DNA from: an uncultured Nitrospinota bacterium
Lineage (GTDB): Bacteria > Nitrospinota > Nitrospinia > Nitrospinales > JAJDAT01
NCBI GenBank assembly: GCA_964570665.1
Contig: CAZMZH010000007.1
Location: 29,319-61,318 of the forward strand
DNA length: 32,000 nt
Direction of reading: 5' to 3'
The position numbers and the translations under genes are program-made. Shown here piece after piece: positions 5,384 to 31,958 of this stretch. Every line of letters begins with the position of its first letter. Within the stretch, counting starts at the first letter, position 1. Below the pieces are notes generated by a model. That model had not been told where the DNA came from, ran no database searches, and was given only the letters and a program-made list of their open reading frames with translations.

Positions 5384-7099
5384 ATGATCAAATTAAGAAT
5401 ATTTATCAACGTCTTATTTTTTATCATTTTTTTATATGTGAATATAAAAACTAGCGAAGCCGAAATAACCTTTCTTACCTTGCCCGATTCTCCTTATGAA
5501 AATAAGGATTTTTATTTAGCCGAAAAAGAATTAAAAAACCTTCCAAAAAATACCAATTTTATTATTCACATTGGACATAAAACGGATGCACAAGAAGGAG
5601 ATTGTGATGAAAATAATTATAAAGATTTAAGTTTTTTACTAAAACAGTCCCCCCTACCCGTTTTTATAATTCCCGGCGCAAATGTCTATTGGAATTGCAA
5701 AAATAAAAATAAAAGAAATCCATTTTGGGATAAATACTTTGGACAATTTGAAAATAATTGGGATTTAAATTTTTCAGTCGCCAGACAAAAGGAACAAAAA
5801 GAAAACTTTGCGTTTTTATTGGAAAACACCCTTTTTATCGGAATCAATTTATTTGAAAAAAGAGATAGAGAAGTTATTAAATTTAATAAAATATTACGAA
5901 ATAATATTTCCTGGGTTCAAGAAAACTTAACTCAAAATCAAAACTTAGTTAAGAATTTAGTTATTTTCTCTCATGACTTTAGCGGACTTAAAGACGAAAA
6001 TTCTGATTATTTTGCTTGCGGTGAAATTCAATTTAACTCTTGGAATATTCATAAAGATTATAAGCTTTTTAGAGATCAATTTATTGAATTAGCCAAAAAC
6101 TTCAACAAACCAATCCTTTACATTCATGGGAATAAACAGTGTTGGACATATGATCGTCCTTATAAAGAACTAAAAAACATTGAAAGGATTATTTTAGATA
6201 AACTCGGAAATCAACCAATGGTTAAAATCACCGTAGGAAAAGGAGGTTTTGCTATAGATCAAAGAACCCATAATAGATTTGATTTCTACCTTCATGAAGC
6301 GATTCAAGGAAATCCAAGGTCGCAATATTTTCTTGGTTTAGAATACTTAAAAATACAAGACTACGAGAATTCAACAAAATGGCTAACAAAAGCGTCTCTT
6401 CAAAATTACCCTCCCGCACAAATCCTGCTAGGCGAAATGCTTAAAGGCAATAACAATGAAAATAAACTGAAAGATTATGCAAAGGCTATAGAACTGTTTC
6501 AGTTGTCAATAGATCGGAAAAATTTCAATATTAACAACGTCAAAAATAAAAAAACTGATAATACTCCTCTTACATACCAAAAAAGAATTAATCAATTTCA
6601 TAAAGAAGTAATAAAAAACTCTTTATATAAAGCTAATTTCAACCTAGGGACTATGTATTTTTTGGGTCTTGGGACCTCTCAGGACTATAAAAAAGCCTTA
6701 AATTATTTCAAAAAAGCTGGAAAAGGAGTTGGTAGCGCTTATTATAATATTGCAACAATCTACTACAATGGCCTAGGAGTTAAAAAGGATGTCAACGAAG
6801 CCAAAAATTGGTGTATCAAAGGGGCTTTAAATGGAATAAAAGAATGCAGTTTTTTGGTTGGTAACATTTATCGAACGGGTCAAGATGGCGTAAAACCAAA
6901 TTATTTGGAAGCTGTAAAATGGTTTAAGCTTGCAGGAAAACATGGAAAAAGTTTATTTAATCTTGGCGTTTTATATTTTAAAGGCTTAGGAGTCTCGCAG
7001 AATATTAAAACAGCAATCAAATATTTTAAAAATGCTGAAATAAATGGAAGTTTAGAAGCAAAAAAAGTATTAGAAAGTCTCCGCAGCGCTCCCAAATAA
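5384..7099 (+). CDS. Secreted protein: degenerate metallophosphatase-like N-domain plus C-terminal Sel1-like repeats
   Basis: N-terminal signal-like hydrophobic segment. ITFLTLPDSPY, FIIHIGHKTD, VFIIPGANVYW and LVIFSHD resemble calcineurin-like domain blocks. At least 4 Sel1 repeats follow (FNLGTMYFLGLGTSQDYKKALNYFKKA, YYNIATIYYNGLGVKKDVNEAKNWCIKGA and others). Confidence 0.75.
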   Translation: MIKLRIFINVLFFIIFLYVNIKTSEAEITFLTLPDSPYENKDFYLAEKELKNLPKNTNFIIHIGHKTDAQEGDCDENNYKDLSFLLKQSPLPVFIIPGANVYWNCKNKNKRNPFWDKYFGQFENNWDLNFSVARQKEQKENFAFLLENTLFIGINLFEKRDREVIKFNKILRNNISWVQENLTQNQNLVKNLVIFSHDFSGLKDENSDYFACGEIQFNSWNIHKDYKLFRDQFIELAKNFNKPILYIHGNKQCWTYDRPYKELKNIERIILDKLGNQPMVKITVGKGGFAIDQRTHNRFDFYLHEAIQGNPRSQYFLGLEYLKIQDYENSTKWLTKASLQNYPPAQILLGEMLKGNNNENKLKDYAKAIELFQLSIDRKNFNINNVKNKKTDNTPLTYQKRINQFHKEVIKNSLYKANFNLGTMYFLGLGTSQDYKKALNYFKKAGKGVGSAYYNIATIYYNGLGVKKDVNEAKNWCIKGALNGIKECSFLVGNIYRTGQDGVKPNYLEAVKWFKLAGKHGKSLFNLGVLYFKGLGVSQNIKTAIKYFKNAEINGSLEAKKVLESLRSAPK

Positions 7100-7280: not shown

Positions 7281-8981
7281 ATGATAAAACCTATACTTTT
7301 TTTAAAAACCTTATTTCTTATTATTATTTTCATATTTACGAATATTGATAACAGCAAGGCAGAAGTAAGTTTTCTTGCCATGGCCGATTCTCCTTATACC
7401 AACAAAGCTTTTTATTTAATTGAAAACGAATTAGAAAATGTTCCTCAAAACACAAATTTCATAATTCACCTTGGGGACATAAAACCAAAAGAAAAGAATT
7501 GTACAGAAAAAGATTATAAAGATTTTAGAGACCTTCTAAAACAATCGCCCATACCTGTTTTTATAATTCCGGGAACTAATGGTTATAGTGTTTGCGGCGA
7601 CCATTCCCAGGCAAAACAATTTTGGGATCAATATATCTTGAAATTTGAAAAAAATTGGAAGTTGAAATTTTTAGTAAATAGACAAAAAGAACAAAAAGAG
7701 AATTTTTCGTTTTTATTAGAGAATACGCTTTTTATAGGAATTAATTTATTCGAAAAAAAGAATCCAGAAAAAAATAGTTATAAAAATATATTAAAAAATA
7801 ATATAACTTGGCTACAAAAAAACTTAAAACAGCATCAAGATCAAGTAAAAAACCTTGTAATCTTTGCCCACGATTTTATCGGTCTAAAAAACAAGAATTA
7901 TTCCAATAAATCTTGCGGGAATATAATTTTAAAGTCTTGGAAAGCCCATAAAAGCAATGACTATTTTAGAAATCATTTTTATTCACTTGTTAAAGAATTT
8001 AAAAAACCTATCCTTTATATCAACGGTAACGATCATTGCTGGACCCATGACCGTCCTTATAAGGGAATAACTTTTTTTGAAAGAATTGTAATAGACAAGA
8101 TTGAAAAATTGCCAATGGTGAAATTTACGATAAAAGATAACAAGTTTCGTTTGGATCAACGAATCAAGGATAGAGAAAACATCTTAATTAAAAAAGCAAC
8201 TTTAGGAGACGTATGGTCTCAATACTTTCTTTCTTCAGAATACTTTAATTTAAATGAACTCCAAAAAGCAAAGAAATGGCTAGCTAAAGCGGCGAACCAG
8301 GAGTTTCCACCTGCCAAAGCTTTACTAGGAAAAATCCTTCAAGGTTTTTTAAATAAAACTTCAGGAGGAAACTATGACCAAGCTAATTTTTTATTACAAT
8401 CATCTATTAAAAAACAAGGCGCTGAAATTGATAATTTCTTAATTGGAAAAAACAATCTTCCATATCAAAAAAGAATTAATCAATTAAAACGAAAAATAAT
8501 AAAAGCTTCAAAATATGAAGCTCATTTTGACTTAGGCTTGATGTACTTTAGGGGGCTTGGGCAAAAACAAAATTATAAGGAAGCGTTAAAACATTACAAA
8601 AAAGCGAGCCAAGGCGTGGGTAATGCCTATTTTAATATTGCTATGTTCCACTTCTATGGTTTAGGAATTGCCAAAAATTCTAATGAGGCCATAAAATGGT
8701 GTACTAAAGGCGCCGTTCATGGGGTTACAGCCTGTATGTTTTTTATTGGCAAATTATATTTGGATGGCCTAGAAGTAAAAAAAGATTATAAAAAAGCCGC
8801 GAAATGGTTTAAATCTGCCGGCAATCATGCCCAAAGTTTATTACATCTAGGTTTTTTATATTTTAACGGTTTAGGAGTACCTCAAGACAATAAAATTGCG
8901 ATGAATTACTTTAAAAATTCTGCTAGAAATGGAAGTCAAGAAGCAAAAAAAATATTAGATATTATTAAAAACAATAAATAA
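7281..8981 (+). CDS. Tandem paralog of the 5384-7099 gene: metallophosphatase-like N-domain plus Sel1-like repeats
   Basis: Same architecture (VSFLAMADSPY, FIIHLGDIKP, VFIIPGTNGY, LVIFAHD, YINGNDHCW) and Sel1 repeats (HFDLGLMYFRGLGQKQNYKEALKHYKKA and others). Confidence 0.78.
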   Translation: MIKPILFLKTLFLIIIFIFTNIDNSKAEVSFLAMADSPYTNKAFYLIENELENVPQNTNFIIHLGDIKPKEKNCTEKDYKDFRDLLKQSPIPVFIIPGTNGYSVCGDHSQAKQFWDQYILKFEKNWKLKFLVNRQKEQKENFSFLLENTLFIGINLFEKKNPEKNSYKNILKNNITWLQKNLKQHQDQVKNLVIFAHDFIGLKNKNYSNKSCGNIILKSWKAHKSNDYFRNHFYSLVKEFKKPILYINGNDHCWTHDRPYKGITFFERIVIDKIEKLPMVKFTIKDNKFRLDQRIKDRENILIKKATLGDVWSQYFLSSEYFNLNELQKAKKWLAKAANQEFPPAKALLGKILQGFLNKTSGGNYDQANFLLQSSIKKQGAEIDNFLIGKNNLPYQKRINQLKRKIIKASKYEAHFDLGLMYFRGLGQKQNYKEALKHYKKASQGVGNAYFNIAMFHFYGLGIAKNSNEAIKWCTKGAVHGVTACMFFIGKLYLDGLEVKKDYKKAAKWFKSAGNHAQSLLHLGFLYFNGLGVPQDNKIAMNYFKNSARNGSQEAKKILDIIKNNK

Positions 8982-9056
8982 CTTATCCGATATTTTAATA
9001 TTTATGAATTAATCAAAGTTACTAAAGATTATTTATATTAGGTTTTAAAAGTCTGA

Positions 9057-9953
9057 TTATGGACGTGGGTGATATTTTTCATGTATTTCACGCAAGCGCG
9101 TTTGCATAACATGTGTATAAATTTGAGTCGTGGAAATATCAGAATGACCCAACATTTGCTGAACCGACCTTAAATCGGCTCCCCCTTCCAATAAATGAGT
9201 CGCAAAAGCATGGCGAAGTGTGTGTGGAGATACAGGTTTTTTGATACCCTCTATTAAGGTATATCTTTTTATAATTTTCCAAAAACCCTGACGAGTCATT
9301 GCTTTACCCCGCCGCGTTAAAAATAATTCTGAAACATTGCGTCCTTTTGTAAAACCGGGACGCGCTCTTAAAACATAATCTTCTACGGCATGCTTGGCAG
9401 CGTCTCCTATTGGAATCAGACGTTCTTTCGAACCCTTCCCAAAAGCTAAAACAAAGCCCATTTGCAAATTAACTTTAGAAGCTTCAAGGTTGATTAGTTC
9501 TGAAACCCGCACCCCAGCCGCGTACAAGATTTCCAACATAGCTTTATCCCGGAGTCCTTCTTGTGTTTTTAAGTCGGGCGCGTTTATTAACCGATCAACT
9601 TCTTCCAAACTCAATACATCAGGAAGTTTTTGTAAAAGCTTAGGCGTTTCTAGTAATTCGGCAGGATTTTTATCGGTGATTTTTTCTTGAATCAAGAATT
9701 CGAAAAACGACCTAATAGACGATTGTAATCTGGCAATTGACCTTGTAGACAGCCCACTCTGCCGAAGCTTTAATAAAAATTCTCTAATATTATTAACGGA
9801 AATATCTTCTAAACGATCGTTTTTAAATTCATTGGCGAATTTGTTCATATCTCTTCTATAAGCTTCCGTCGTGTTTAACGAGCGACGCTTTTCGATTGAA
9901 AGATAATCAACAAATTCTCTTATATAATGTTGCAATTCTATCCTCAGTTCCAA
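9057..9953 (-). CDS. xerD: Site-specific tyrosine recombinase XerD
   Basis: Core-binding domain SLNTTEAYRRDM. Catalytic blocks AAGVRVSEL, HTLRHAFATHLLEGGADLRSVQQMLGHSDISTTQIYTHV. Closer to XerD than XerC in the GADLRSVQxxLGH block. Confidence 0.9.
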   Translation of the reverse strand: MELRIELQHYIREFVDYLSIEKRRSLNTTEAYRRDMNKFANEFKNDRLEDISVNNIREFLLKLRQSGLSTRSIARLQSSIRSFFEFLIQEKITDKNPAELLETPKLLQKLPDVLSLEEVDRLINAPDLKTQEGLRDKAMLEILYAAGVRVSELINLEASKVNLQMGFVLAFGKGSKERLIPIGDAAKHAVEDYVLRARPGFTKGRNVSELFLTRRGKAMTRQGFWKIIKRYTLIEGIKKPVSPHTLRHAFATHLLEGGADLRSVQQMLGHSDISTTQIYTHVMQTRLREIHEKYHPRP

Positions 9954-10163
9954 CAGTTTTTTTTACGTCACTATGTGGCTAAAATCGTAAGTTCCACTCT
10001 GAATTTCATCCTGGTCCTTCGGTAAACTCAGGATAAACTCTGTCCAAGGATCACACCTCGATTCAATAAATCTTTTCCTATATCTACTATATAATAATAG
10101 CAAAAACTCATTTATTATCAATTAGTTATATGCTATTAGATTTTTCATGAATTTAAAACCTAA

Positions 10164-21370: not shown

Positions 21371-21700
21371 CTAAACTTGAAGATTTGCTTTAGGCGTCTT
21401 TGATTTTTGGGAAGAGTTAAATAACTTAATATCTTTGAGATCTCCACCCTTTTCTTCGGCAACTTCTAAGTCGTATTTCTGTTGTAGATTCAACCAGATT
21501 TCTGGACCTGTTCCAAAAAACTTTCCTAATCGTCTAGCGGTATCTGCAGTAATATCTCTTTGCCCATTCAAGATTTGATAAATTCGGTTACTAGGCACAT
21601 TTAGAGCTTTAGCAAATTGATTGCCATTCATTTCAATTTCTTCCAGCTCTTCTGCCAATATTTCTCCGGGATGTATAGGAACTCTCCAATCATTCGCCAT
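21371..21700 (-). CDS. higA: HigA-family antitoxin (HTH XRE)
   Basis: WRVPIHPGEILAEELEEIEMNGNQFAKALNVPSNRIYQILNGQRDITADTARRLGKFFGTGPEIWLNLQQKYDLE. Confidence 0.95.
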   Translation of the reverse strand: MANDWRVPIHPGEILAEELEEIEMNGNQFAKALNVPSNRIYQILNGQRDITADTARRLGKFFGTGPEIWLNLQQKYDLEVAEEKGGDLKDIKLFNSSQKSKTPKANLQV

Positions 21701-21711
21701 GTTTTTATCCT

Positions 21712-21990
21712 TTAATGATAGTCGACAATTTCCACATCAAGAGCATAGCCATCTTCCCATTTAAAACAAATACGCCACTGATCGTTTATCCTGATACTAT
21801 ACTGGTCTTTTCGATCTCCTTTTAACGCTTCAAATCGATTTCCTGGTATAGCGACCAAAGCCCCCAAAGTTGGGGCGGTCTCCAAAACACGAAGTCGCGT
21901 TAGCGCTTTTCGTGCAATGGGTTTAAATTTTTTTACAAATTCACGGCCATAAAGCTTTTCCGTGTTTTTACATTTAAAACTCTTAATCAT
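21712..21990 (-). CDS. higB: HigB/RelE-family toxin
   Basis: MIKSFKCKNTEKLYG...LEALKGDRKDQYSIRINDQWRICFKWEDGYALDVEIVDYH-type signature, directly upstream of higA. Confidence 0.95.
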   Translation of the reverse strand: MIKSFKCKNTEKLYGREFVKKFKPIARKALTRLRVLETAPTLGALVAIPGNRFEALKGDRKDQYSIRINDQWRICFKWEDGYALDVEIVDYH

Positions 21991-22091
21991 TCAGCTTTGG
22001 AAACAGGATTAACGTACTACGTCAATCGTAGCAAAAAATAGTTTATCAATCAATTTTCAATTGCTATTTATTCAAGTAAAACAACTGCAAC

Positions 22092-22384
22092 GGGCTCTGT
22101 AGCAGTATAACCCGCTTTCGTCCAACTCGCCTCCGGTCTAATGCAATCGATTGCCGTTTTCATTGCCGGTTTCGGTAATCAATTCGCCAAAAGGACCTAC
22201 TGCATCGTCGCTTGCGCGCTGCCTAACGATTCCACCAGGGACGTGACCGATCGTAAATGGTCGTGATGATAGGTCGCGGCGGTTTCGTTCCCGCTAGAAT
22301 TATAATGCAACCCATGCACCACCTCGTCCACCACCACGCCGCGAAAGTATTGATCCTCCAATTGAAATGTCTGGTAGTAAACGA
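22092..22384 (-). pseudogene. RHS/YD-repeat core remnant
   Basis: Reverse strand reads YYQTFQLEDQYFRGVVVDEVVHGLHYNSSGNETAATYHHDHLRSVTSLVESLGSAQATMQ*. A 1-nt deletion (ATGCAGTAGGTCC versus ATGCAGTACGGTCC in the other copies) creates the stop. RHS similarity then continues in another frame to ...YRARC. Confidence 0.9.
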
Positions 22385-22461: not shown

Positions 22462-22740
22462 ATGATTAAAAGTTTCAAGCATCGTGGATTGAAAAAGTTT
22501 TTTGAGGATGGTGATTCTCGAAAAATACCACACGATATGTTAGATCGAATACGTTTAATTCTCGCTCGTCTAAATACTGCCCGAAACCTTGAAGCTATGA
22601 ATATTCATTCCTATCATTTGCATGAACTCAAAGGGAATCGCAAAGGAACTTGGAGCGTTACTGCTCGGGCTAATTGGCGGATTACTTTCCGATTTGAAAA
22701 TGGGGACGCTTTTGATTTAAATTTTGAAGATTATCATTAG
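22462..22740 (+). CDS. higB: HigB/RelE-family toxin (second locus)
   Basis: MIKSFKHRGLKKFFEDGDSRKIPHDMLDRIRLILARLNTA...LHELKGNRKGTWSVTARANWRITFRFENGDAFDLNFEDYH. Confidence 0.96.
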   Translation: MIKSFKHRGLKKFFEDGDSRKIPHDMLDRIRLILARLNTARNLEAMNIHSYHLHELKGNRKGTWSVTARANWRITFRFENGDAFDLNFEDYH

Positions 22741-22752
22741 AAGGAAAAAAAC

Positions 22753-23073
22753 ATGGCCATTAAAAAATATCAAATGAAAAATCCACCTCACCCTGGATTA
22801 GGCGTGAAAGTTGATTGTTTAGAACCTTATGGATTGAGTATTACTAAAGGCGCAAAAATATTAGGTGTTACGAGACAAACCTTAAGCCTTCTGGTCAATC
22901 AAAAAACATCCTTATCGTGGGACATGGCAATCCGGCTTTCGAAGGCCTTTGGATCAACCCCAGAAGGATGGATGGAATTACAATTTCAATATGATTCCGC
23001 ACAAGCCGTTAAACGCGCAAAAAAAATAAAGGTGACCCCCTATCAGGGATCACTAGAACCCGCTTATCAATAA
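22753..23073 (+). CDS. higA: HigA-family antitoxin (second locus)
   Basis: PPHPGLGVKVDCLEPYGLSITKGAKILGVTRQTLSLLVNQKTSLSWDMAIRLSKAFGSTPEGWMELQFQYD. Confidence 0.95.
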   Translation: MAIKKYQMKNPPHPGLGVKVDCLEPYGLSITKGAKILGVTRQTLSLLVNQKTSLSWDMAIRLSKAFGSTPEGWMELQFQYDSAQAVKRAKKIKVTPYQGSLEPAYQ

Positions 23074-23198
23074 TGGATCTTCCGTTAAGAACCTTCCGAC
23101 CTCCGGATCGTAATAGTGTGCTCGGTAGTAATATACTGAGGCCCATTCAAGTCCAAAGCTTAAAAAACTGTCCGCCTGAGGCTCTCGAAGGCCGAGCG
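23074..23198 (-). repeat. R0: RHS core-end fragment plus linker repeat
   Basis: Reverse strand reads SVYYYRAHYYDPEVGRFLTEDP, fused upstream to a linker nearly identical to R1 (cccattcaagtccaaagcttaaaaaactgtccgcctgaggctctcgaaggccgagcg). Confidence 0.85.
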
Positions 23199-24665
23199 GC
23201 GGAATACGTTATTCCAAAATGATGAATTAGCGAAAGGAGCCCGCTAGGATCACTAGCATTTATTGGATTATTTTCTACATAAGCATAGAAATTAATTCCA
23301 GCACGGAAACCCATGGAATCTTCCGTTAAGAACCTTCCGACTTCCGGATCGTAATAGCGGGCTCGGTAGTAGTATAACCCGGAATCGTCCAACTCGCGTC
23401 CGGTGTAATGCAATCGGTTGCCGTTGTCGCTGCCGGTTTCCGTTATCAATTCGCCAAAAGGACCGTACTGCATCGTCGCCTGTGCGCTGCCTAACGTTTC
23501 CACCAGGGACGTGACCGACCGTAAATGGTCATGGTGATAAGTTGTCCCGCTTTCGTTCCCGCTAGAATCGTAATGCAACCCATGCACCACCTCGTCTACC
23601 ACCACGCCGCGAAAATATTGATCCTGCAATTGAAATGTCTCGTCATAAATCGCTTCTAAATGCTCCCCTTCTAAATAATAGTTCCGCGTATTAAACCCTC
23701 CATCATTATTCTTGATGCGGTAATCGCTCGGATCGTATTTAAAATAAAACGATTTACCCGGAGTCGACATTCCCGTCACTCGGTTTTTTTGATCGTAAAC
23801 AAAACTCTGTAGAGTCGTGTCGTCGACATTTCGCTTGGTTAATCGATTGCCGTTAGAATCGTACTCGTATTTGGCGACCAAAGGACCCATAACGCTGCCC
23901 TGGCGCACTTCCATTAACTGATTATTGACGTTATAAACGTAAACATGAACGACGCCGTCTTTCGTATGAGTCAATCGATTTCCCACCTTATCGTACGTAT
24001 AAGCATGATCGTTTGCGGTATTTGGCGCTTCCACTCCGATCAAACGATTGAGACTATCGTAGGTATAAAATGTGGTTCCTTCCCCTCCCTGGGGTCCAAC
24101 AGAAACGGTTGTGATATTTCCCACTTTGTCGTAAGTGTACAACGTACGGCTTATTTCCGTTCCTCCTAAACCTTCGTTGACCAAAGACGTCAACCGATTA
24201 TCGGCGTCGCACCTCTTGAGCTTGCCCTGAGCTAGCCGAAGGGTCGTTTGACAAGATACGATTCACCAATCGTCCCGCTTCGTCGTAGAAATAAGAAACC
24301 TGAACGTGATCCGAATTACTCTGCGCGATCAACCGATTGGCGGAGTTGTATTGATAATTCGTCGTCTTTCCCTGATAATCGGTTTTGGTAGCGACGTTGC
24401 CAACTTTATCGTAAGTCCAACTGAGAGTTTTGTTGGTTGTGGCGCCATTGTGATCGAGCCGTTCGTCGTTTTTACTAATCAAACGATTCTGCTGGTCGTA
24501 GGTGAACGAATAGATGATGCCGCCATTAGCAACCTGTTGCAAATTGCCAAAACTATCGTAAGTGCGCAGTTCCTGTTTGCCGTCATTATAAAAATCGGTA
24601 AATATCAACCGATTCAAGGTGTCGTACGCAAAGAAAAAGTTGTGACTGTAACTATAATAACAGTT
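23147..24665 (-). pseudogene. Truncated, frame-disrupted RHS/YD-repeat gene
   Basis: YD repeats (YTYDKVGNITTVSV, YDSLNRLIGVEAP, YEYDSNGNRLTK) and core end LHYTGRELDDSGLYYYRARYYDPEVGRFLTED...NPINASDPSGLL. Two ORFs (24198-24617 and 23147-24193) are in different frames. No intact N-terminus: stops appear upstream of YSHNFFFAYDTLNRLI. Confidence 0.9.
24211..24246. repeat. Short REP-like repeat inserted in the RHS coding sequence
   Basis: acctcttgagcttgccctgagctagccgaagggtcg sits between RHS sequence ...RLVNRILSN and DADNRLTSL and shifts the frame. It resembles ccagcctgtcctgagcgaagccgaaggatc at 26568-26597. Confidence 0.6.
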
Positions 24666-25224: not shown

Positions 25225-25363
25225 GGAGCGAATTGTACAGCGAAATTAACGCAAACAAAAGCATCCTTTCTCTCTTTTGATTATGACAACAAGCAAGAAT
25301 TAAATTAGTAAACCCAGGCTCACCATGAGAGCGCTGATAGAAGAGAAATAATATGACTGATTT

Positions 25364-25590
25364 CGGAATCGTAATAGCGGGCTCGGTAGTAATATACAGA
25401 GGCTCATTCAACTCCAGAGCTTAAAAAACTGTCAGCCTGAGGCTCTCGAAGGCCGAGCGCCATACGTTAAAATAAAACGACTCCAAAACTTCCAATCAGT
25501 TACAAACCAATTTTCCCAATAAAATTAATTAGCTGTCATCCTTGAGTGAAGCGAAGGATCTACCCCAATGCGGTTTTAGAATTAATTTTC
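25364..25590 (-). repeat. R1: RHS core-end fragment plus linker repeat
   Basis: Reverse strand ASVYYYRARYYDSE. The linker contains the gaaggccgagcg block, ccaatcagttacaaacc, tgtcatccttgagtgaagcgaaggatctaccccaatgcggtttt and attaattttc. Confidence 0.85.
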
Positions 25591-25682
25591 TTATTAATCC
25601 AAAAGTAGTTTTAGCTTAATTTTAAAATGAAATGAAGATGAAAGTTTGTACCTATACATCCTATTTCCTTAATGTTTCCTTC

Positions 25683-25717: not shown

Positions 25718-25987
25718 ATGGCTACTATTACAATCAAATTGGACATTGACAAAAAAGAACAAGGTTGTCTTTTCGAAGTCGACGAAAATGCAGAGCGACA
25801 AATAGAAAAAGAACGTCAACGTTCTGGCAAGGATCGCGATGCAATTATTCTTGACATAGCCCAACGAACACTCTCTCTAATGGAATTCAATGCTATTCGG
25901 GAAGAGTTAGCTCCCTATGCTGAAAAAGCAAATTTGAGCGAAGAAGAAATACTCGCTCTGCCAAGAATGTCTTCAAAAAATAGCTAA
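25718..25987 (+). CDS. Putative antitoxin partner of the PIN-family toxin
   Basis: 89 aa acidic protein immediately upstream of and codirectional with a PIN-domain gene. IEKERQRSGKDRDAIILDIAQR resembles a ribbon-helix-helix-like regulator. Confidence 0.65.
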   Translation: MATITIKLDIDKKEQGCLFEVDENAERQIEKERQRSGKDRDAIILDIAQRTLSLMEFNAIREELAPYAEKANLSEEEILALPRMSSKNS

Positions 25988-25999
25988 CCGATAAAGTAC

Positions 26000-26410
26000 G
26001 TGAGAGTTTTTTTTGACACGAACGTATTGGTGAGCGCTTTTACTAGCGGGGGAATATGCCTTAATCTAGTAAAAAGAACAATTGAAGACACGCAACACAA
26101 CCTGCTCGTAGGCACAGTTATTATTGACGAGCTAAGTCGGATTTTGACTCACCGGTTTAACTACCCTCCCCAAAAATTAGATCGCGTAATAGCCTTCCTA
26201 ATTAAATATAGGGCAATACTTATGCCCAAAACAAAGCCTCCCGTTTCTGTCCGCGATCCCGATGACGAACTGGTGCTCGCCTCTGCGCTGGAAACAGGAG
26301 CAGACATTCTAGTTACAGGAGACAAAGATCTACTAATACTGGGCGACACAGCGGGAATTAAAATAGTAGACCCACGCATGCTTTGGGAGATGTTGACAAA
26401 GGAAGATTAG
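26000..26410 (+). CDS. PIN-domain toxin (putative toxin-antitoxin system toxin component, PIN family)
   Basis: MRVFFDTNVLVSAFTSGG, VIIDELSRIL, VRDPDDELVLASALETGADILVTGDKDLLIL. The PIN acidic residues are present. Confidence 0.93.
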   Translation: MRVFFDTNVLVSAFTSGGICLNLVKRTIEDTQHNLLVGTVIIDELSRILTHRFNYPPQKLDRVIAFLIKYRAILMPKTKPPVSVRDPDDELVLASALETGADILVTGDKDLLILGDTAGIKIVDPRMLWEMLTKED

Positions 26411-26437
26411 CGCATCCGGATTCCTAATCGTCAAATC

Positions 26438-26690
26438 AGGCTCTGTAGTAGTATACGGAAGCTCATTCCATAAGGCAGCCCCGCTTCCGGGCTCTAAAAA
26501 AATGTCACTCTGAGCCTGTCGAAGGCCGAGCGTCGGACGTTAAAATTAAATTACCTCTCTCCCGCCCCAGCCTGTCCTGAGCGAAGCCGAAGGATCTAGA
26601 CCAATTTTTCCAATAAAATTCATTAGCTGTCATCCTTGAGTGAAGCGAAGGATCTACCTTAATGCGGGTTTTGGCTTAATTCTTATTGAT
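26438..26690 (-). repeat. R2: RHS core-end fragment plus linker repeat
   Basis: Reverse strand ASVYYYRA*. The linker shares gaaggccgagcg, tgtcatccttgagtgaagcgaaggatctacc, aatgcgg. It also has an extra cctgtcctgagcgaagccgaaggatct copy. Confidence 0.8.
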
Positions 26691-26806: not shown

Positions 26807-27052
26807 ATGCCAATTAAAATCCTAGAGCATGTCAAAGCCCAGGAACTTCCAAAATCCTGGAAAAAGGAACTAAATCCCAGCCCCGAGGAAACGTTTCGAA
26901 TTACTATTGAACCCGAAAGCGAGCTGACTGACGAGCCGTTTGACGTAACCCATGATCCTATCTTTCAATTAGAAGGATATGACTCAGATGCGCCTTCTGA
27001 CTTATCTAAAATTTCAGATAAGTTACTTTATGGAAAAAACCATCCTGCATAA
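26807..27052 (+). CDS. Putative VapB-like antitoxin
   Basis: 81 aa acidic protein preceded by an SD-like ggag. Its stop codon overlaps the start of the downstream PIN gene by 1 nt. Confidence 0.65.
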   Translation: MPIKILEHVKAQELPKSWKKELNPSPEETFRITIEPESELTDEPFDVTHDPIFQLEGYDSDAPSDLSKISDKLLYGKNHPA

Positions 27053-27459
27053 TGGAAACGGTTTTCCTGGATGCAAATGGGTGGATCGCCCTTTCAAATA
27101 AAAGGGATCAATTAAACGCTAAAGCGGTTAATCGTAATAAAGAACTCCTTCAAAATCAGACTCGCTACCTAACAACCAATTTCGTTCTAGACGAAACCTA
27201 TACCACACTCATGGCAAAGGTAGGAAACTTTGCGGCTGTGGACTTCGGCGAAAGAGTCAGAAACTCAAAATCCGTCACGATTGTTCACATCTCTCCAGAA
27301 ATCGAAGAAGAAGCTTGGCAACTTTTCAAAAAATACTCCGACAAACAATTTTCTTTTACAGACTGCACTTCATTTGTTGTGATGCAAAGATTTAAATTGG
27401 AAAAAGCATTCACAAACGACCATCATTTTGAACAAGCAGGATTTTCAATTCTGTTATAA
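27052..27459 (+). CDS. VapC-like PIN-domain ribonuclease toxin
   Basis: METVFLDANGWIAL, LTTNFVLDETYTTL, FSFTDCTSFVVMQRF, AFTNDHHFEQAGF. Confidence 0.93.
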   Translation: METVFLDANGWIALSNKRDQLNAKAVNRNKELLQNQTRYLTTNFVLDETYTTLMAKVGNFAAVDFGERVRNSKSVTIVHISPEIEEEAWQLFKKYSDKQFSFTDCTSFVVMQRFKLEKAFTNDHHFEQAGFSILL

Positions 27460-27532: not shown

Positions 27533-27700
27533 GTGGGCTCGGTAGTAATATACGGAGGCAGAAGAACGCCGTACACTAAAATTAAACTTCTCCATTGCCT
27601 CCAATCAGTTACAACTTAATTTTCCCAATAAAACTCAATACCTGTCATCCTCGAACGAAGTGAAGGATCTACCCCAATGCGGTTTTGAAATTAATTTTCC
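27533..27700 (-). repeat. R3: RHS core-end fragment plus linker repeat
   Basis: Reverse strand SASVYYYRAH. The linker shares acggaggcagaagarcg, ccaatcagttacaa, tgtcatcct..gaagtgaaggatctaccccaatgcggttttgaaattaattttcc. Confidence 0.85.
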
Positions 27701-27775
27701 TTCTGGTTCAGAAGAAGTCTATGAGTAAAATTTTATAATTAAAGAAATGAAAAATATTTCTGGAAAAGATTAATT

Positions 27776-28090
27776 TTAGTTGTCTGGAAGGTTATATTCT
27801 TTTTTAGCATATTCAAAAGAAACTACTGATAAACGAAATGGCCCCAGCCCATGCATTGCACTATGGGGATATGTGTATTCCCAATATCGCCCCTTAAACC
27901 ATTCTCTATATAAAATATGAAAACCACCAGGTGCATCAGCAATCTTTTTCAGGAAAAATAGTCTAAAAAATTCTAATCTTCTTACGTTTTCACTCACTAT
28001 TCTTCCATTTATGACTTCCCAATCTTGATCAAGCTTGGTTTCACCTTTTGTTATTTTAAAAAAAATCTTTAAATATAAGTTTTTTAACAT
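27776..28090 (-). CDS. Candidate immunity protein, Imm27-like, for the adjacent RHS tip
   Basis: ETKLDQDWEVINGRIVSENVRRLEFFRLFFLKKIADAPGGFHILYREWFKGRYWEYTYPHSAMHGLGPFRL. The GRYWExTYPxSxxHGxGPxxL pattern matches my recollection of Imm27. It starts 21 nt after the stop of the RHS tip. Confidence 0.6.
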   Translation of the reverse strand: MLKNLYLKIFFKITKGETKLDQDWEVINGRIVSENVRRLEFFRLFFLKKIADAPGGFHILYREWFKGRYWEYTYPHSAMHGLGPFRLSVVSFEYAKKEYNLPDN

Positions 28091-28111: not shown

Positions 28112-28880
28112 TCACTTTGAATAAACTTGTTGCATCATATTATTATTTGGCTTGTTTGGGTAGATTACAAAACCACCTTGTGCAGGTTCGCCCTGACTTA
28201 CCGCATTAATACCAAACCCAATTCCCGAAGCTCTATCTGAGACAATTCGGCCAGTTGCATCACTTGGAATAGAACCATTTGGAACAACGAACTCTCGTGC
28301 TCCACCCTGAGTAAATCCTCCATCTATAAACCCTGGTTCAGTACGATTTCTTGGAATATCAAGTTTAGAAAAGTTGCTTGAAGAAAATTCAAAAAGATGA
28401 AAAGATCCAGGATTCTCAATTATTAGTCGTTCAGCAATTTATTGAGCACTATTCAATCCCTCTAATGCTCCTGCGTCAGCAACAAAAGCATCTGGTCTCG
28501 TTTTTAAATTTAAAAGAAAATCTGGATTGAGGTCTTTAGAAGGAATTGTACGAACTAGATTTTCAGGTATACCGCTCCTTGTAAAAGTGGACGTACAGCT
28601 TGCCCACCGCCAGTAACAAAAGGAATTAATGCACCGCCAACGTCTAAAAGCAATGCAACTCCGTTTGTTAAAGTTAACCCCTCTTCGGCTATAAAAGCGA
28701 GATCGGCAACAATAAATCCTATATCCAATAATGTGTCTGCAAAGTTTCCTGTAGGATCATTTGCGTTAATTGGGTTATTGTGGACATATGCATAAAAATT
28801 AACTCCGGCCTTAAATCCTACAGGATCCTCAGTTAAGAACCTTCCGACTTCGGGATCGTAATAGCGGGCTCGGTAGTAAT
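28112..28880 (-). pseudogene. Orphan RHS C-terminal tip cassette (core-end fragment plus variable tip) with frame disruptions
   Basis: Reverse strand YYYRARYYDPEVGRFLTEDPVGFKAGVNFYAYVHNNPINANDPTGNFADTLLDIGFIVADLAF...GGGQAVRPLLQGAVYLKI*. A frameshift follows near 28590, then SGIPENLVRTIPSKDLNPDFLLNLKTRPDAFVADAGALEGLNSAQ*IAERLIIENPGSFHLFEF...AREFVVPNGSIPSDATGR...GGFVIYPNKPNNNMMQQVYSK*. Confidence 0.85.
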
Positions 28881-29013
28881 ATACGGAGGCAGAAGAGCGT
28901 CATACGCTAAAATCGAATTTAGCCAATGCATCCAACCAGTTACAAACAAATTTTTTCAAAAAAAACACCAATCTAAAATTTTGACCCCAATGCGGTTTTA
29001 AAATTAATTTTCC
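28865..29013 (-). repeat. R4: RHS core-end fragment plus linker repeat
   Basis: cgggctcggtagtaatatacggaggcagaagagcgtcatacgctaaaat...ccaaccagttacaaac...ccccaatgcggttttaaaattaattttccc, parallel to R3 and R1. Confidence 0.85.
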
Positions 29014-29075
29014 CACTTAAACAGAAACGATTTTGGTTTATTTTTTCGATTAAAAAAAGAAGGGAGTAAGTATTT

Positions 29076-29615
29076 TTAAGAACTAGAACTTTTTAGCGAA
29101 GAATTTTCTTTAGAAGTTTCTAATTTACTCTCTTTTAGTATTGAAGCAATTTTAGAATAATCAGAACCTATTTTTTTTCCAGCCCAATCAGAATAAACAT
29201 ATTTTAACTTATTATTATTTTCTGAAATAATTATCGAAATTGAATGATCAACTAGAAATTTTTTTTCATATAAGACATCAATGATCTTATTTCTTTCAAT
29301 TAACATTAAATAAGTCAATGAAGTTACTCCAAACAACACATACTTGCTAGTAATCGCTATTCCAAAATGACCAAGAATTAGGGGATCAATATCTTTTCTA
29401 ATTTTTTTACCATTTGATTCACTATATATCTTGAGGACACCTCGACGAACTCGGAAGATCACTTTGTCTTCAAGGTTTTTAATTAATTTATGCCCCAGTA
29501 AAATTCGGGTAATTCCAATAAAACCATAATCTAAGAATACTATCAGAACAATTAATGGAAATATTGCTTCGAGCCAAAAATCCCAACTCACAATCATTTC
29601 TTTTAGGTAGCTCAT
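29076..29615 (-). CDS. Hypothetical membrane protein; candidate partner or immunity protein of the RHS tip at 29699-30844
   Basis: 179 aa with an N-terminal hydrophobic segment (LEAIFPLIVLIVFLDYGFIGI) and a second one (KYVLFGVTSLTYLML). Codirectional, 83 nt after the RHS stop. Confidence 0.45.
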   Translation of the reverse strand: MSYLKEMIVSWDFWLEAIFPLIVLIVFLDYGFIGITRILLGHKLIKNLEDKVIFRVRRGVLKIYSESNGKKIRKDIDPLILGHFGIAITSKYVLFGVTSLTYLMLIERNKIIDVLYEKKFLVDHSISIIISENNNKLKYVYSDWAGKKIGSDYSKIASILKESKLETSKENSSLKSSSS

Positions 29616-29698
29616 TTAAAAAACTAAAGTCTCAAAAAAATTAGATATTATTGAATAAATTACTGTACTAAAACTTTTTATCTCGAAAATACTTTTTC

Positions 29699-30844
29699 CT
29701 ATTTACTATACACTTGTTGCATAAAATTATTATTGGGTTTATTAGGATAGATCACAAATCCCCCTCCAGCGCCACCGGAATTAGATTGAGCGTTTCCAGT
29801 AAAAAAATTGGAAATACTATTGAATAAATTCTTTGCTCCATCAACAAAATCTCCAATAGCGTTGCTTCGAAAAGCCGATTCAGTATTCGTTATTGTAGGA
29901 CCTACTTCAGGAGTATTAATTCCAAAAGGAGAAAGACCAAACTCGAAAAATGCTTGAACATTATCTTTGGTGCTGGTGGTTGGAAATGTTGCCCCAAATG
30001 TAAAACTTCGCTTTTGAGTAATGGGAAATGATCCGCTAATAGACCTTGATCTACCCTCAAGGTTATCTAGCGTAGTATTTTCATTGCCAAATAAAAAGTT
30101 AACAAACAATCCACCACTCTCGCTTTGTCCTGAAAGGACTCCCCCTTCTTCATGTTGGGTAAAAATACCAAACTCCAATGTTTCCGTATCGATGGCAACA
30201 ATAGTACTTACAGAACCTTTTGCCCCAACTCCTTCGGGAGCAAAACCACCACCGCCTCCAAAATTGAAACCAACAGGCCTTTTCCCAGCTGGATCGTTAA
30301 AACTGATTGGGTTATTATTTACATAAGCATAAAAATTTGGTCCGGCTTCGAAACCTAAAGGGTCTTCAGTGAGGAAGCGGCCAACCTCAGGATCGTAATA
30401 GCGGGCTCGGTAGTAGTATAACCCGCTTTCGTCCAACTCGCGTCCGGTGTAATGCAATCGATTGCCGTTGTCGCTGCCGGTTTCCGTTATCAATTCGCCA
30501 AAAGGACCGTATTGCATCGTCGCCTGTGCGCTTCCTAACGATTCCACCAGGGACGTGACCGACCGCAAATGATCGTGATGATAGCTCGCCCCTGTTTCAT
30601 TACCGCTAGAATCGTAATGGAGCCCGTGCACCACCTCGTCCACCACCACGCCGCGAAAATATTGATCCTGCAATTGAAATGTCTGGTCGTAAATCGCTTC
30701 TAAATGCTCCCCTTCTAAATAATAGTTCCGCGTATTTAATCCTCCATCATTATTCCTGATCCTGTAATCGCTCGGATCGTATTTAAAATAAAACGATTTA
30801 CCCGGAGTCGACATTCCCGTCACTCGATTTTTTTTATTTTCCAT
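29699..30844 (-). CDS. RHS-family protein fragment (5'-truncated core plus Gly-rich variable tip)
   Basis: GKSFYFKYDPSDYRIRNNDGG, YFRGVVVDEVVHGLHYDSSGNETG, LHYTGRELDESGLYYYRARYYDPEVGRFLTEDPLGFEAGPNFYAYVNNNPISFNDPAG core, then a unique tip ending GGGFVIYPNKPNNNFMQQVYSK. No N-terminal repeats or secretion signal. Confidence 0.85.
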   Translation of the reverse strand: MENKKNRVTGMSTPGKSFYFKYDPSDYRIRNNDGGLNTRNYYLEGEHLEAIYDQTFQLQDQYFRGVVVDEVVHGLHYDSSGNETGASYHHDHLRSVTSLVESLGSAQATMQYGPFGELITETGSDNGNRLHYTGRELDESGLYYYRARYYDPEVGRFLTEDPLGFEAGPNFYAYVNNNPISFNDPAGKRPVGFNFGGGGGFAPEGVGAKGSVSTIVAIDTETLEFGIFTQHEEGGVLSGQSESGGLFVNFLFGNENTTLDNLEGRSRSISGSFPITQKRSFTFGATFPTTSTKDNVQAFFEFGLSPFGINTPEVGPTITNTESAFRSNAIGDFVDGAKNLFNSISNFFTGNAQSNSGGAGGGFVIYPNKPNNNFMQQVYSK

Positions 30845-30962
30845 TATTAATCACAAAAAGGCTTGATACTACTAAATGTTTCAATTTGAGAAAAGGAAGG
30901 AAATAAGTTAAAATCTGGAGCTTTTATTCCGTACTTTTTGAAAGGTTTTAAGGTTTCCTAAT

Positions 30963-31958
30963 ATGTCTGGAATCACTTTAGTTCAACATATCCGCGCGCA
31001 GGAACAGAAATCCCCTGGGGCTACCGGAGAATTCTCAGGTTTAATGAACGATGTACTGGTCGCGGCAAAACTAGTTTCGCGCGAAGTCAATCGCGCTGGT
31101 ATCGCCGAAGATATTATTGGATTGACGGGCGAAGTGAACGTGCAAGGCGAGGAAGTTCAAAAACTCGATCACTATGCGAATGAAACCTTTATTAAAGTGC
31201 TTTCTCAATCTGGCAAAGTTTGCGCTATAGGCTCTGAAGAAAACGAAAACGCAGTTATAGTCCCTAAAGACCAACAAACCAGCGGTAAATACATATTTAT
31301 GATGGACCCACTGGACGGCTCTTCAAATATCGACGTGAACGTAGGAATTGGGACCATTTTTGCCATTTATGAAAAGAAAAGTTCTGGCGATACGGTTACC
31401 GATGAAGACTTATTACAAAAAGCCGATCAACAAGTTGGAGCTGGTTACGTTCTCTATGGTTCCAGCACAATGTTTGTCTATACCACAGGTAACGGAGTTC
31501 ATGGTTTTACGCTCGATCCCGCTATCGGAGAATTTTATCTTTCTCACCCAGATTTAAAAATTCCCTCAAAAGGTTCCATTTATAGCGCCAATGAGGGAAG
31601 CGTATCCTTCTGGAACGACAAACAAAAAGCTCTTGTCCAATACTATAAAGAAACGGATAAAGAAACCGGCAGGCCTTATAAATTACGCTATATCGGAACT
31701 CTGGTGTCGGATTTTCACCGAACTCTTCTTAAAGGCGGTATTTTTATGTATCCTGGGGACAGTAAAAGTCCCAATGGGAAACTAAGGTTTGCGTTTGAAG
31801 CCGCTCCCTTAGCTTTTATTGTCGAGCAAGCCGGCGGCAAAGCGAGCGATGGGAAGTCCAATATTTTTACTCAATCGCCCACTGAACTTCACCAAAGAAT
31901 TCCACTTTTTATCGGCAGTAAGGAAGATGTTGAGTTAGCCGAAAAAAAATTGCAGTGA
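30963..31958 (+). CDS. fbp: Class I fructose-1,6-bisphosphatase
   Basis: MDPLDGSSNIDVNVGIGTIFAIYE, RYIGTLVSDFHRTLLKGGIFMYP, LRFAFEAAPLAFIVEQAGGKASDG. Confidence 0.97.
   Translation: MSGITLVQHIRAQEQKSPGATGEFSGLMNDVLVAAKLVSREVNRAGIAEDIIGLTGEVNVQGEEVQKLDHYANETFIKVLSQSGKVCAIGSEENENAVIVPKDQQTSGKYIFMMDPLDGSSNIDVNVGIGTIFAIYEKKSSGDTVTDEDLLQKADQQVGAGYVLYGSSTMFVYTTGNGVHGFTLDPAIGEFYLSHPDLKIPSKGSIYSANEGSVSFWNDKQKALVQYYKETDKETGRPYKLRYIGTLVSDFHRTLLKGGIFMYPGDSKSPNGKLRFAFEAAPLAFIVEQAGGKASDGKSNIFTQSPTELHQRIPLFIGSKEDVELAEKKLQ

Follow-up and report, generated by a model that had tools for sequence, protein, structure and literature searches.

A conserved C-terminal module follows unrelated variable domains in a family of predicted RHS toxins

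Introduction

The usual picture of RHS/YD-repeat polymorphic toxins is that of a constant delivery part, with a toxin that varies freely at the very end of the protein. In known members, the Rhs core undergoes autoproteolysis at DPxG...DPxG, and in the solved type VI secretion system (T6SS) effectors, a cocoon holds an unfolded or molten toxin that is released by aspartyl autoproteolysis. The survey of Zhang et al. 2012 (PMC3482391) lists the pairing of Ntox10 toxins with Imm27 immunity proteins, as well as a Sec-dependent 'RHS + transglutaminase' architecture for Ntox10/Imm27. Here, we analyze a 32,000-nucleotide stretch of DNA (hereafter the window) from an uncultured Nitrospinota bacterium (contig CAZMZH010000007.1, positions 29,319 to 61,318), in which two RHS tips end in the same peptide of 21 to 23 residues, the tail. 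The RHS polymorphic toxin system itself is already known; the tail is new as an unannotated feature.

Results

Two unrelated tips in the window share one C-terminus

The peptide GGFVIYPNKPNNN[F/M]MQQVYSK forms the common C-terminus of two minus-strand RHS tips, with stops at 29699 (tip A) and 28112 (tip B). Tip A, an open reading frame (ORF) at 29699-30844 on the minus strand, ends in ...SGGAGGGFVIYPNKPNNNFMQQVYSK, and the minus-strand reading frame of tip B ends in ...GEPAQGGFVIYPNKPNNNMMQQVYSK; both peptides lie where a first-pass annotation of the window had placed a shared terminal 21-mer. A degenerate back-translated tail pattern matched only two window sites, tails A and B, and gave 0 matches in 100 shuffles. 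The two tips and their flanking genes comprise the following features:

29699..30844, minus strand: tip A gene, an N-terminally truncated RHS C-terminal module of 381 amino acids (aa) with shell end, core, variable tip and tail
30284..30511, minus strand: RHS-associated core of tip A (YYYRARYYDPEVGRF...NDPAG; TIGR03696), the 5' constant region
29771..30277, minus strand: variable toxin domain A, Gly-rich, with no relationship to tip B or to the 18 other tail-bearing tips compared
29702..29770, minus strand: tail A, AGGGFVIYPNKPNNNFMQQVYSK (23 residues; 21-residue version at 29702-29764, stop at 29699-29701)
29076..29615, minus strand: candidate immunity ORF for tip A, 179 aa with a hydrophobic N-terminal region, directly downstream of tip A
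28112..28884, minus strand: tip B orphan cassette, a pseudogene with core stub, hydrophobic pre-toxin segment, Ntox10, linker and tail
28241..28570, minus strand: Ntox10 domain of tip B (Pfam PF15520, profile positions 85-192 of 193, E 2e-28, 100 bits)
28115..28183, minus strand: tail B, AQGGFVIYPNKPNNNMMQQVYSK (23 residues; 21-residue version at 28115-28177, stop at 28112-28114)
27776..28090, minus strand: Imm27 immunity gene, the next gene after tip B (Pfam PF15590, E 1.4e-6, above its cutoff)

The TIGR03696 profile matches residues 112-187 of tip A at 88.6 bits (cutoff 32.5), with the end motif YYYRARYYDP...NDPxG. This core carries YLEGEHLEAIY and SYHHDHLRSV, the core subtype of the tail-bearing family described below (LEGEHLEA..., F/YHHD...SV). 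The variable region that follows (~174 aa, Gly-rich) has no Pfam or NCBIfam match and no Ntox10 signal. The 179-aa ORF likewise matches nothing in Pfam or NCBIfam, and its product is, by position, a candidate immunity protein for tip A.

Tip B begins at a core stub near 28884 (VYYYRARYYDPEVGRF...), of which 28843-28883 aligns at the DNA level with 95% identity to the reference copy. The earlier description of tip B as an orphan tip stands for its tail and its stop at 28112 but not for an intact ORF, since a frameshift near 28560-28575 together with an in-frame stop codon (TAA, 28439-28441) makes it a pseudogene, whose last intact frame spans 108 codons. The PF15520 match stops ~42 residues short of the C-terminus, placing the tail outside the toxin domain. 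BLASTP of the post-core regions of tips A and B aligned their last 31 residues (24/31 identical, E 9e-13) and found no alignment upstream of these; with tip B an Ntox10 toxin and tip A not, the two tips are unrelated above the tail, as had been proposed by eye.

The tail closes RHS proteins across bacterial phyla

A scan with a DNA pattern for GFV.YPNKPN returned 64 loci, 15 in one-genome-per-species contigs and 49 in metagenome contigs. The genome hosts include Nitrospinales, Nitrospirales, Desulfobacula, Thermodesulfobacteriota, Gammaproteobacteria (among them Methylovulum), Bacteroidales, Pedobacter and others; the loci as a whole fall in Nitrospinota, Desulfobacterota, Gammaproteobacteria, Bacteroidota and further groups, and most hosts are not Bacteroidota. 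Together with the window, these loci gave 75 matches, 72 of which carry ...VYxK directly before the stop. Positions left free by the pattern are conserved as well: among 63 distinct DNA versions, G1, Y19 and K21 occur in 63/63, N13 in 62/63 and V18 in 61/63.

A profile hidden Markov model (HMM) of the tail was run against 1.84 billion cluster representatives with no word index and retrieved 443 protein clusters at E<=1e-3. The 150 best matches include 147 true tails, nearly all of which lie <=3 residues from the protein C-terminus, so that the database search proposed by the first-pass annotation recovers the element almost exclusively as a terminus. A tail-only profile run against a 5.8-billion-protein index returned 5 short proteins, this index apparently reporting query-length matches only, as inferred from the match lengths. 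The sole clear internal tail occurs in P0128 (188 aa; residues ~78-100, with 88 residues after it), probably through a lost stop codon.

The unbiased consensus from the HMM search is GGF[VL][LI]YP[NS]K[PSA]N[TLN]N[MQ]M[QR][SQA]VY[SAK]K, and the invariant columns of a 70-sequence family alignment are GG..YP...N.N.....Y.K. An Ala occupies position -2 in 253 of 286 distinct C-termini, and the 12 residues before the tail are 71% S/G/A/N/T/P, giving the full element as [S/G-rich linker]-A-x-G-G-F-[VL]-[LI]-Y-P-[NS]-K-[PSA]-N-x-N-x4-V-Y-x-K-COOH. No further conservation was found upstream of the linker in 254 sequences, which leaves a constant part of ~23 residues; a longer motif before the tail, F.D...FF (present in tip A, L007 and L009), was discarded because it occurs in only 10 of the 254. 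Neither Pfam nor NCBIfam holds a model of the tail, the motif string was not found in the literature searched, and PDB sequence searches with the tail gave no match. A viral origin is unsupported, with 0 tail matches in viral contigs. These comparisons identify the tail as a previously undescribed, strongly conserved C-terminal module of predicted RHS toxins.

A hypervariable domain lies between core and tail

Wherever a tail-bearing ORF extends far enough upstream, it includes an RHS core. Between NDPxG and the tail lie 178 residues at the median (5-95% range 140-216, n=140), and this narrow length range fits encapsulation. All-vs-all BLASTP of 20 tips detected two related pairs only, the tips being otherwise mutually unrelated. 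Pfam assigned Ntox10, Peptidase_C92 (a papain-like amidase), alpha/beta hydrolase and NTP_transf_2 domains to a few tips and none to most; WHH-type nuclease tips were also seen by eye. Since unrelated tips lie between the core end and the tail, the bracketed hypervariable domain is real, and hundreds of proteins bear out the suggestion that the tail is a second constant region, bracketing the variable domain jointly with the core end. The tail thus follows toxins of unrelated predicted folds and lies outside the toxin domain.

The same results bear on the simplest alternative, in which tips A and B are homologous throughout and the tail is the end of a single toxin domain family. Beyond the shared tail itself, nothing speaks for it. 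Only tip B gives an Ntox10 signal, sequence similarity between the tips is confined to the last 31 residues, and the same tail stands after a papain-like amidase, an alpha/beta hydrolase, a nucleotidyltransferase, WHH-like domains and many unassigned domains; this alternative is almost certainly wrong.

Selection acts on the peptide rather than on a DNA homology block

The two window tails are identical at 20/21 aa and at 49/66 nt, with a longest exact run of 11 nt. Different codons are used at 11 of the 20 identical residues, including Ser as TCA versus AGT. Across 12 within-contig tail pairs, nucleotide identity is 67-80% with longest exact runs of 5-13 nt, which is indistinguishable from between-genome pairs (mean identity 71%, median run 9). 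Entropy at the third codon positions reaches 1.7-1.9 bits at four-fold sites, and first and second positions show none. Residues conserved in the face of near-saturated synonymous sites indicate purifying selection on the peptide rather than homogenization of the DNA. The comparison of nucleotide with protein identity therefore argues for a functional tail, one of the two roles first proposed for it.

The other proposed role, a 3' homology block that together with the core end would allow recombination to swap tips between cassettes, is not upheld. Tail and core do bracket the variable region, arrays with several tails exist (L005, L010, L022, L033, L049, L052, L057 and the window), and a repeat search lists the window tails as a 58-nt repeat of 81% identity (D12). 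However, tails within an array are no more alike in DNA than those of unrelated genomes, and their differences are mostly synonymous. RecA-dependent exchange is generally thought to need ~20-30 nt of exact identity, and the exact runs in the tail fall well below this. A core-to-tail swap would also part the toxin from its immunity gene, and better repeats flank the cassettes, namely a core stub of 41 nt present six times and a leader of 80-250 nt at 79-90% identity. We consider a homology block very improbable; cassette exchange would more plausibly use the core stub and leader repeats than the tail.

The tail is inherited with one RHS family

Both window copies are N-terminally truncated orphans, and the N-terminal architecture is known from P0084 and ~115 homologues. 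P0084 (2,363 aa; L032 2172-9263) is the only complete tail-bearing gene among the first loci. It comprises a Sec signal peptide, a transglutaminase-like domain (PF01841), DUF6531 (PF20148) and a YD shell, the family layout from there onward being a YD shell of ~1,250 aa, the RHS core, a tip of ~140-216 aa and the tail. P0084 has neither PAAR nor VgrG and no T6SS marker. Used as a query, P0084 retrieved 187 homologues, almost all of which share its architecture and measure 2,300-2,750 aa. Among 100 P0084 homologues of at least 2,200 aa, 70 carry a strict tail and 17 a recognizable degenerate one, for example ...YPSALNNEGLANAYKK. In P0296 (2,277 aa, L021), which scores as tail-less, an in-frame stop at 9947-9949 after the toxin domain is followed by 91 codons in the same frame leading to a perfect tail; nonsense mutation, an error in sequencing or read-through could each account for this stop.

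The nearest neighbour of the core (last 115 residues) is itself tail-bearing for 39 of 48 tail-bearing proteins versus 4 of 35 tail-less ones, and the core column that best separates the two groups reads FHHD versus YHAD. Judged by sequence, the tail tracks the scaffold of one RHS family across phyla and through deep divergence (38-55% identity). Among RHS tips without a tail, many of the sister core type (YHAD) end in Cys-rich sequences such as ...CGCQE, ...CEYCENKK and ...CCERRR (P0185, P0190, P0218, P0239, P0245, P0255 and others), perhaps another C-terminal ending that recurs.

AlphaFold2 modelled the N-terminal 900 residues with a predicted local distance difference test score (pLDDT) of 84.8. 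A PDB fold match was obtained for the transglutaminase-like part only, and a PDB sequence search with these 900 aa gave no match. At the catalytic Cys site of the transglutaminase-like domain, P0084 reads GNDVD (residues 82-86, L032 ~9006-9020), with the Asp 97% conserved and His153 kept. Because Asp replaces the nucleophilic Cys, Cys-dependent transglutaminase catalysis is unlikely, and the domain may be a pseudo-enzyme or have a variant active site. The following region, residues ~200-840 (~650 aa; L032 6744-8663), is strongly conserved, for example at GGYYLIATGGETSNWSQVHRAA and SSLEHEIWQELTGYDA, and has a confident AlphaFold2 fold with no Pfam match and no PDB fold match.

A secreted protein, and in some loci XrtM, neighbours the RHS gene

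A secreted coiled-coil protein of 215-450 aa is encoded immediately upstream of the RHS gene in L032 and in six of seven looked-up loci. In the seventh (L068), it is fused to an upstream leucine-rich repeat (LRR) protein, giving a 652-aa product. The protein has a conserved C-terminal PT..T.T.HR motif and no Pfam match. Scans of L065-L068 located the tail on the RHS gene only.

L065 (Methylomonas methanica), L066 and L067 carry an XrtM exosortase (TIGR04300, 233 bits) near the RHS gene and also encode a membrane protein of ~210 aa and a prenyltransferase-like/LRR protein of ~415 aa ending in an IPTL-CTERM signal. With the secreted coiled-coil protein, here ~240 aa, these genes form a conserved cluster around the RHS gene. 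The XrtM clusters map to 8027-10004 and 19525-20728 in L065, 7014-9998 in L066, and 7863-9897 and 19760-21029 in L067. The other loci have cadherin-like giants in place of the XrtM genes.

These neighbours raise the alternative of a processing or ligation element, with the tail a pro-peptide cut at A-x-G-G or its C-terminal Lys a covalent acceptor, for instance via XrtM. The Ala at -2, the invariant GG at the tail start and the invariant K21 are compatible with such chemistry; Y-P-N-K recalls the YPKN pilin motif of sortases, and XrtM with an IPTL-CTERM LRR protein flanks the RHS gene in three loci. Against it, XrtM has an IPTL-CTERM LRR substrate of its own and occurs in 3/7 loci, as opposed to 7/7 for the tail, and hence does not track the tail and is an unlikely reader of it; the literature searched yielded no mention of XrtM and no link between exosortases and RHS. 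R, Q, M, S or T can stand in for the Lys of YPNK, even in an XrtM locus. Transglutaminase chemistry on the invariant Lys is likewise unlikely, given the Cys-to-Asp change at the nucleophile position of the transglutaminase-like domain. Processing or ligation is quite improbable.

The tail as a possible handle for variable cargo

A tail that is constant across toxin folds, inherited with one scaffold family and placed on a flexible linker at the cargo C-terminus suggests a cargo-independent handle. In the mechanism we propose, autoproteolysis of the core would free the tip within the YD shell. The tail, a short peptide with a flexible linker and a free C-terminus bearing an invariant Y-x-K, would then be bound at this terminus by an invariant component encoded with it. 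This reader could be a part of the RHS protein itself, its plug or N-terminal part, or else the conserved small secreted protein encoded just upstream. One and the same machinery could thereby position and retain any toxin before threading it out or releasing it. We tentatively favour this function for the tail, inferred from sequence, with somewhat less than even confidence.

Several observations weigh against a handle. Up to 13 of 100 full-length members lack the tail (regex), although several keep relics of it, and the association of the tail with a core subfamily could partly reflect how the sets were sampled. An AlphaFold2 model of the last 1,199 residues of P0084, built with 32 homologues, has a shell pLDDT of ~90 and leaves the tip, linker and tail undocked at 20-30 (tail 23-24); over the part that this single-chain model covers, the C-terminal three quarters of the shell, it lends no support to a binding site. 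Published Rhs structures also contain no ordered toxin or anchor for the C-terminus, these being T6SS Rhs proteins without the tail.

The undocked tail would also suit an address label read outside the RHS operon, either as an outer-membrane export signal or as a target-cell import motif comparable to a TonB or Tol box. A Sec signal peptide without PAAR, VgrG or any T6SS marker leaves the outer-membrane step unexplained, and a short linear motif on a flexible linker with an exposed terminus has the form of such a label. The near-identical tail nevertheless occurs in phyla with very different envelopes and secretion systems, it is found in a single RHS family and not on other secreted proteins of the same genomes (RHS gene only in the L065-L068 scans), and no known C-terminal signal model in Pfam or NCBIfam matches it. 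Before release, the tail would moreover be expected within the shell along with the tip. We regard an address label as unlikely.

A broader form of the handle reading makes the tail the universal cargo-recognition peptide of an uncharacterized, T6SS-independent YD-shell delivery system, consisting of the RHS protein, the conserved upstream secreted protein and adhesin-like partners, which would hold and later eject any encapsulated toxin by its C-terminal 21 residues. This version is possible though doubtful.

The window is a partly decayed cassette array

The window belongs to a Nitrospinota-like genome and contains a partly decayed orphan-cassette array of the tail-bearing RHS family. Within it there is no full-length RHS gene, no upstream partner gene and no XrtM, only 3' shell fragments. 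An RHS core-end block of 41 nt occurs in six copies (23095-23135, 23336-23376, 25356-25396, 26415-26455, 28843-28883 and 30380-30420), and several of these are preceded by a leader repeat (ACCCCAATGCGGTTTT...) of 80-250 nt with 79-90% identity (families D6, D7, D8 and D11). Core-end blocks and preceding leaders together define the cassette array, which includes, besides the two tips:

23147..24617, minus strand: third RHS fragment, in two ORFs (TIGR03696, 87.7 bits; PF05593 YD/RHS repeat matches)
25455-25650, 26600-26681, 27564-27759 and 28863-29072: inter-cassette leader copies, the last of which fronts the tip B core stub on the minus strand (28884..29072)

One common junction marks the start of the orphan stubs at 28884 and 23140, GCCTC[C/A]GTATATTACTACCGAG. 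The core of the third fragment is nearly identical to that of tip A, with neither tip nor tail present. Its apparent short 'tip' at 23147-23240 (...SAARPSRASGGQFFKLWT, the last ~30 codons) is read-through into the inter-cassette repeat D9/D10 (23102-23216), so the fragment has lost its tip. Another decayed RHS shell end, with in-frame stops, lies at 22091-22381 and is 87-92% identical to 23358-23649 and 30402-30693.

VapBC- or HigBA-type modules occupy three cassette positions of the array. Toxin-antitoxin modules stand directly after RHS core stubs at 25718-26410, 26807-27459 (plus strand), 21371-22000 and 22480-23073; these are two PIN/VapC genes with small upstream genes and two HigBA/HTH-like pairs. 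It looks as if they replaced or invaded cassettes, standing in place of the expected tip and immunity gene.

The window DNA is 80-86% identical to a locus from a Nitrospinales metagenome-assembled genome (MAG; L013) and to a metagenome contig (L062), and ~77% identical to L009, from a Nitrospinia MAG, across the RHS core and repeats. The closest core protein to that of the window (83% identity) comes from the same Nitrospinales MAG as L013. A fructose-1,6-bisphosphatase-like gene (fbp) adjoins the truncated RHS module in the window (30879-31958), L013 (6958-7998) and L062 (1036-2697), placing the array at a conserved chromosomal position. Elsewhere in the window, two tandem plus-strand paralogues of ~570 aa (5384-7099 and 7281-8981) have signal peptides and Sel1/TPR-like C-terminal repeats and sit in a low-GC island (25-32% GC versus ~40% elsewhere).

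Discussion

The tail offers a concrete, mutable element for asking how the delivery part handles arbitrary folds and how Rhs toxins leave the cocoon. As a simple sequence marker, it can also help to annotate the orphan tips, many of which are now called as anonymous proteins of 50-130 aa, along with the large and unstudied T6SS-independent RHS family to which they belong. Were it a cargo-recognition peptide, appending it to a foreign protein of suitable size could make that protein a substrate.

Constant C-terminal elements on diverse secreted proteins are also found among exosortase signals (PEP-CTERM, IPTL-CTERM) and the C-terminal domain of the type IX secretion system. Unlike the former, the tail has no transmembrane helix, basic cluster or CTERM-model match, and XrtM is absent from 4/7 loci; unlike the latter, a beta-sandwich of 80-100 residues restricted to Bacteroidota, it measures ~21-23 residues, has no Pfam or NCBIfam match and resides mostly in other hosts. 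Encapsulin cargo-loading peptides are C-terminal, lie behind a flexible Gly/Ser/Ala-rich linker and are common to unrelated cargo in one shell. Their resemblance to the tail would be one of logic only, as there is no sequence similarity, the RHS cargo is covalently part of the shell protein, and AlphaFold predicted no docking of the tail on the part modelled.

The T6SS Rhs effectors (RhsA of P. protegens, Rhs1 of P. laumondii, Tse5, Tse15 and S. bongori Rhs) share the closed YD cocoon. They differ in that the solved proteins have no post-toxin tail, whereas the tail-bearing family has a signal peptide, a transglutaminase-like N-terminus and a region of ~650 aa without a PDB fold match, and has no PAAR, VgrG or clade domain. 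With the RHS/YD-repeat polymorphic toxins at large, the tail-bearing family has in common its YD repeats, RHS-associated core, hypervariable tips, downstream immunity genes, orphan arrays and the Ntox10-Imm27 pair; among published architectures, it corresponds most closely to the Sec-dependent 'RHS + transglutaminase' type. PMC3482391 describes no element of the tail's kind, and what sets the present family apart is the conserved 23-residue module that follows the toxin.

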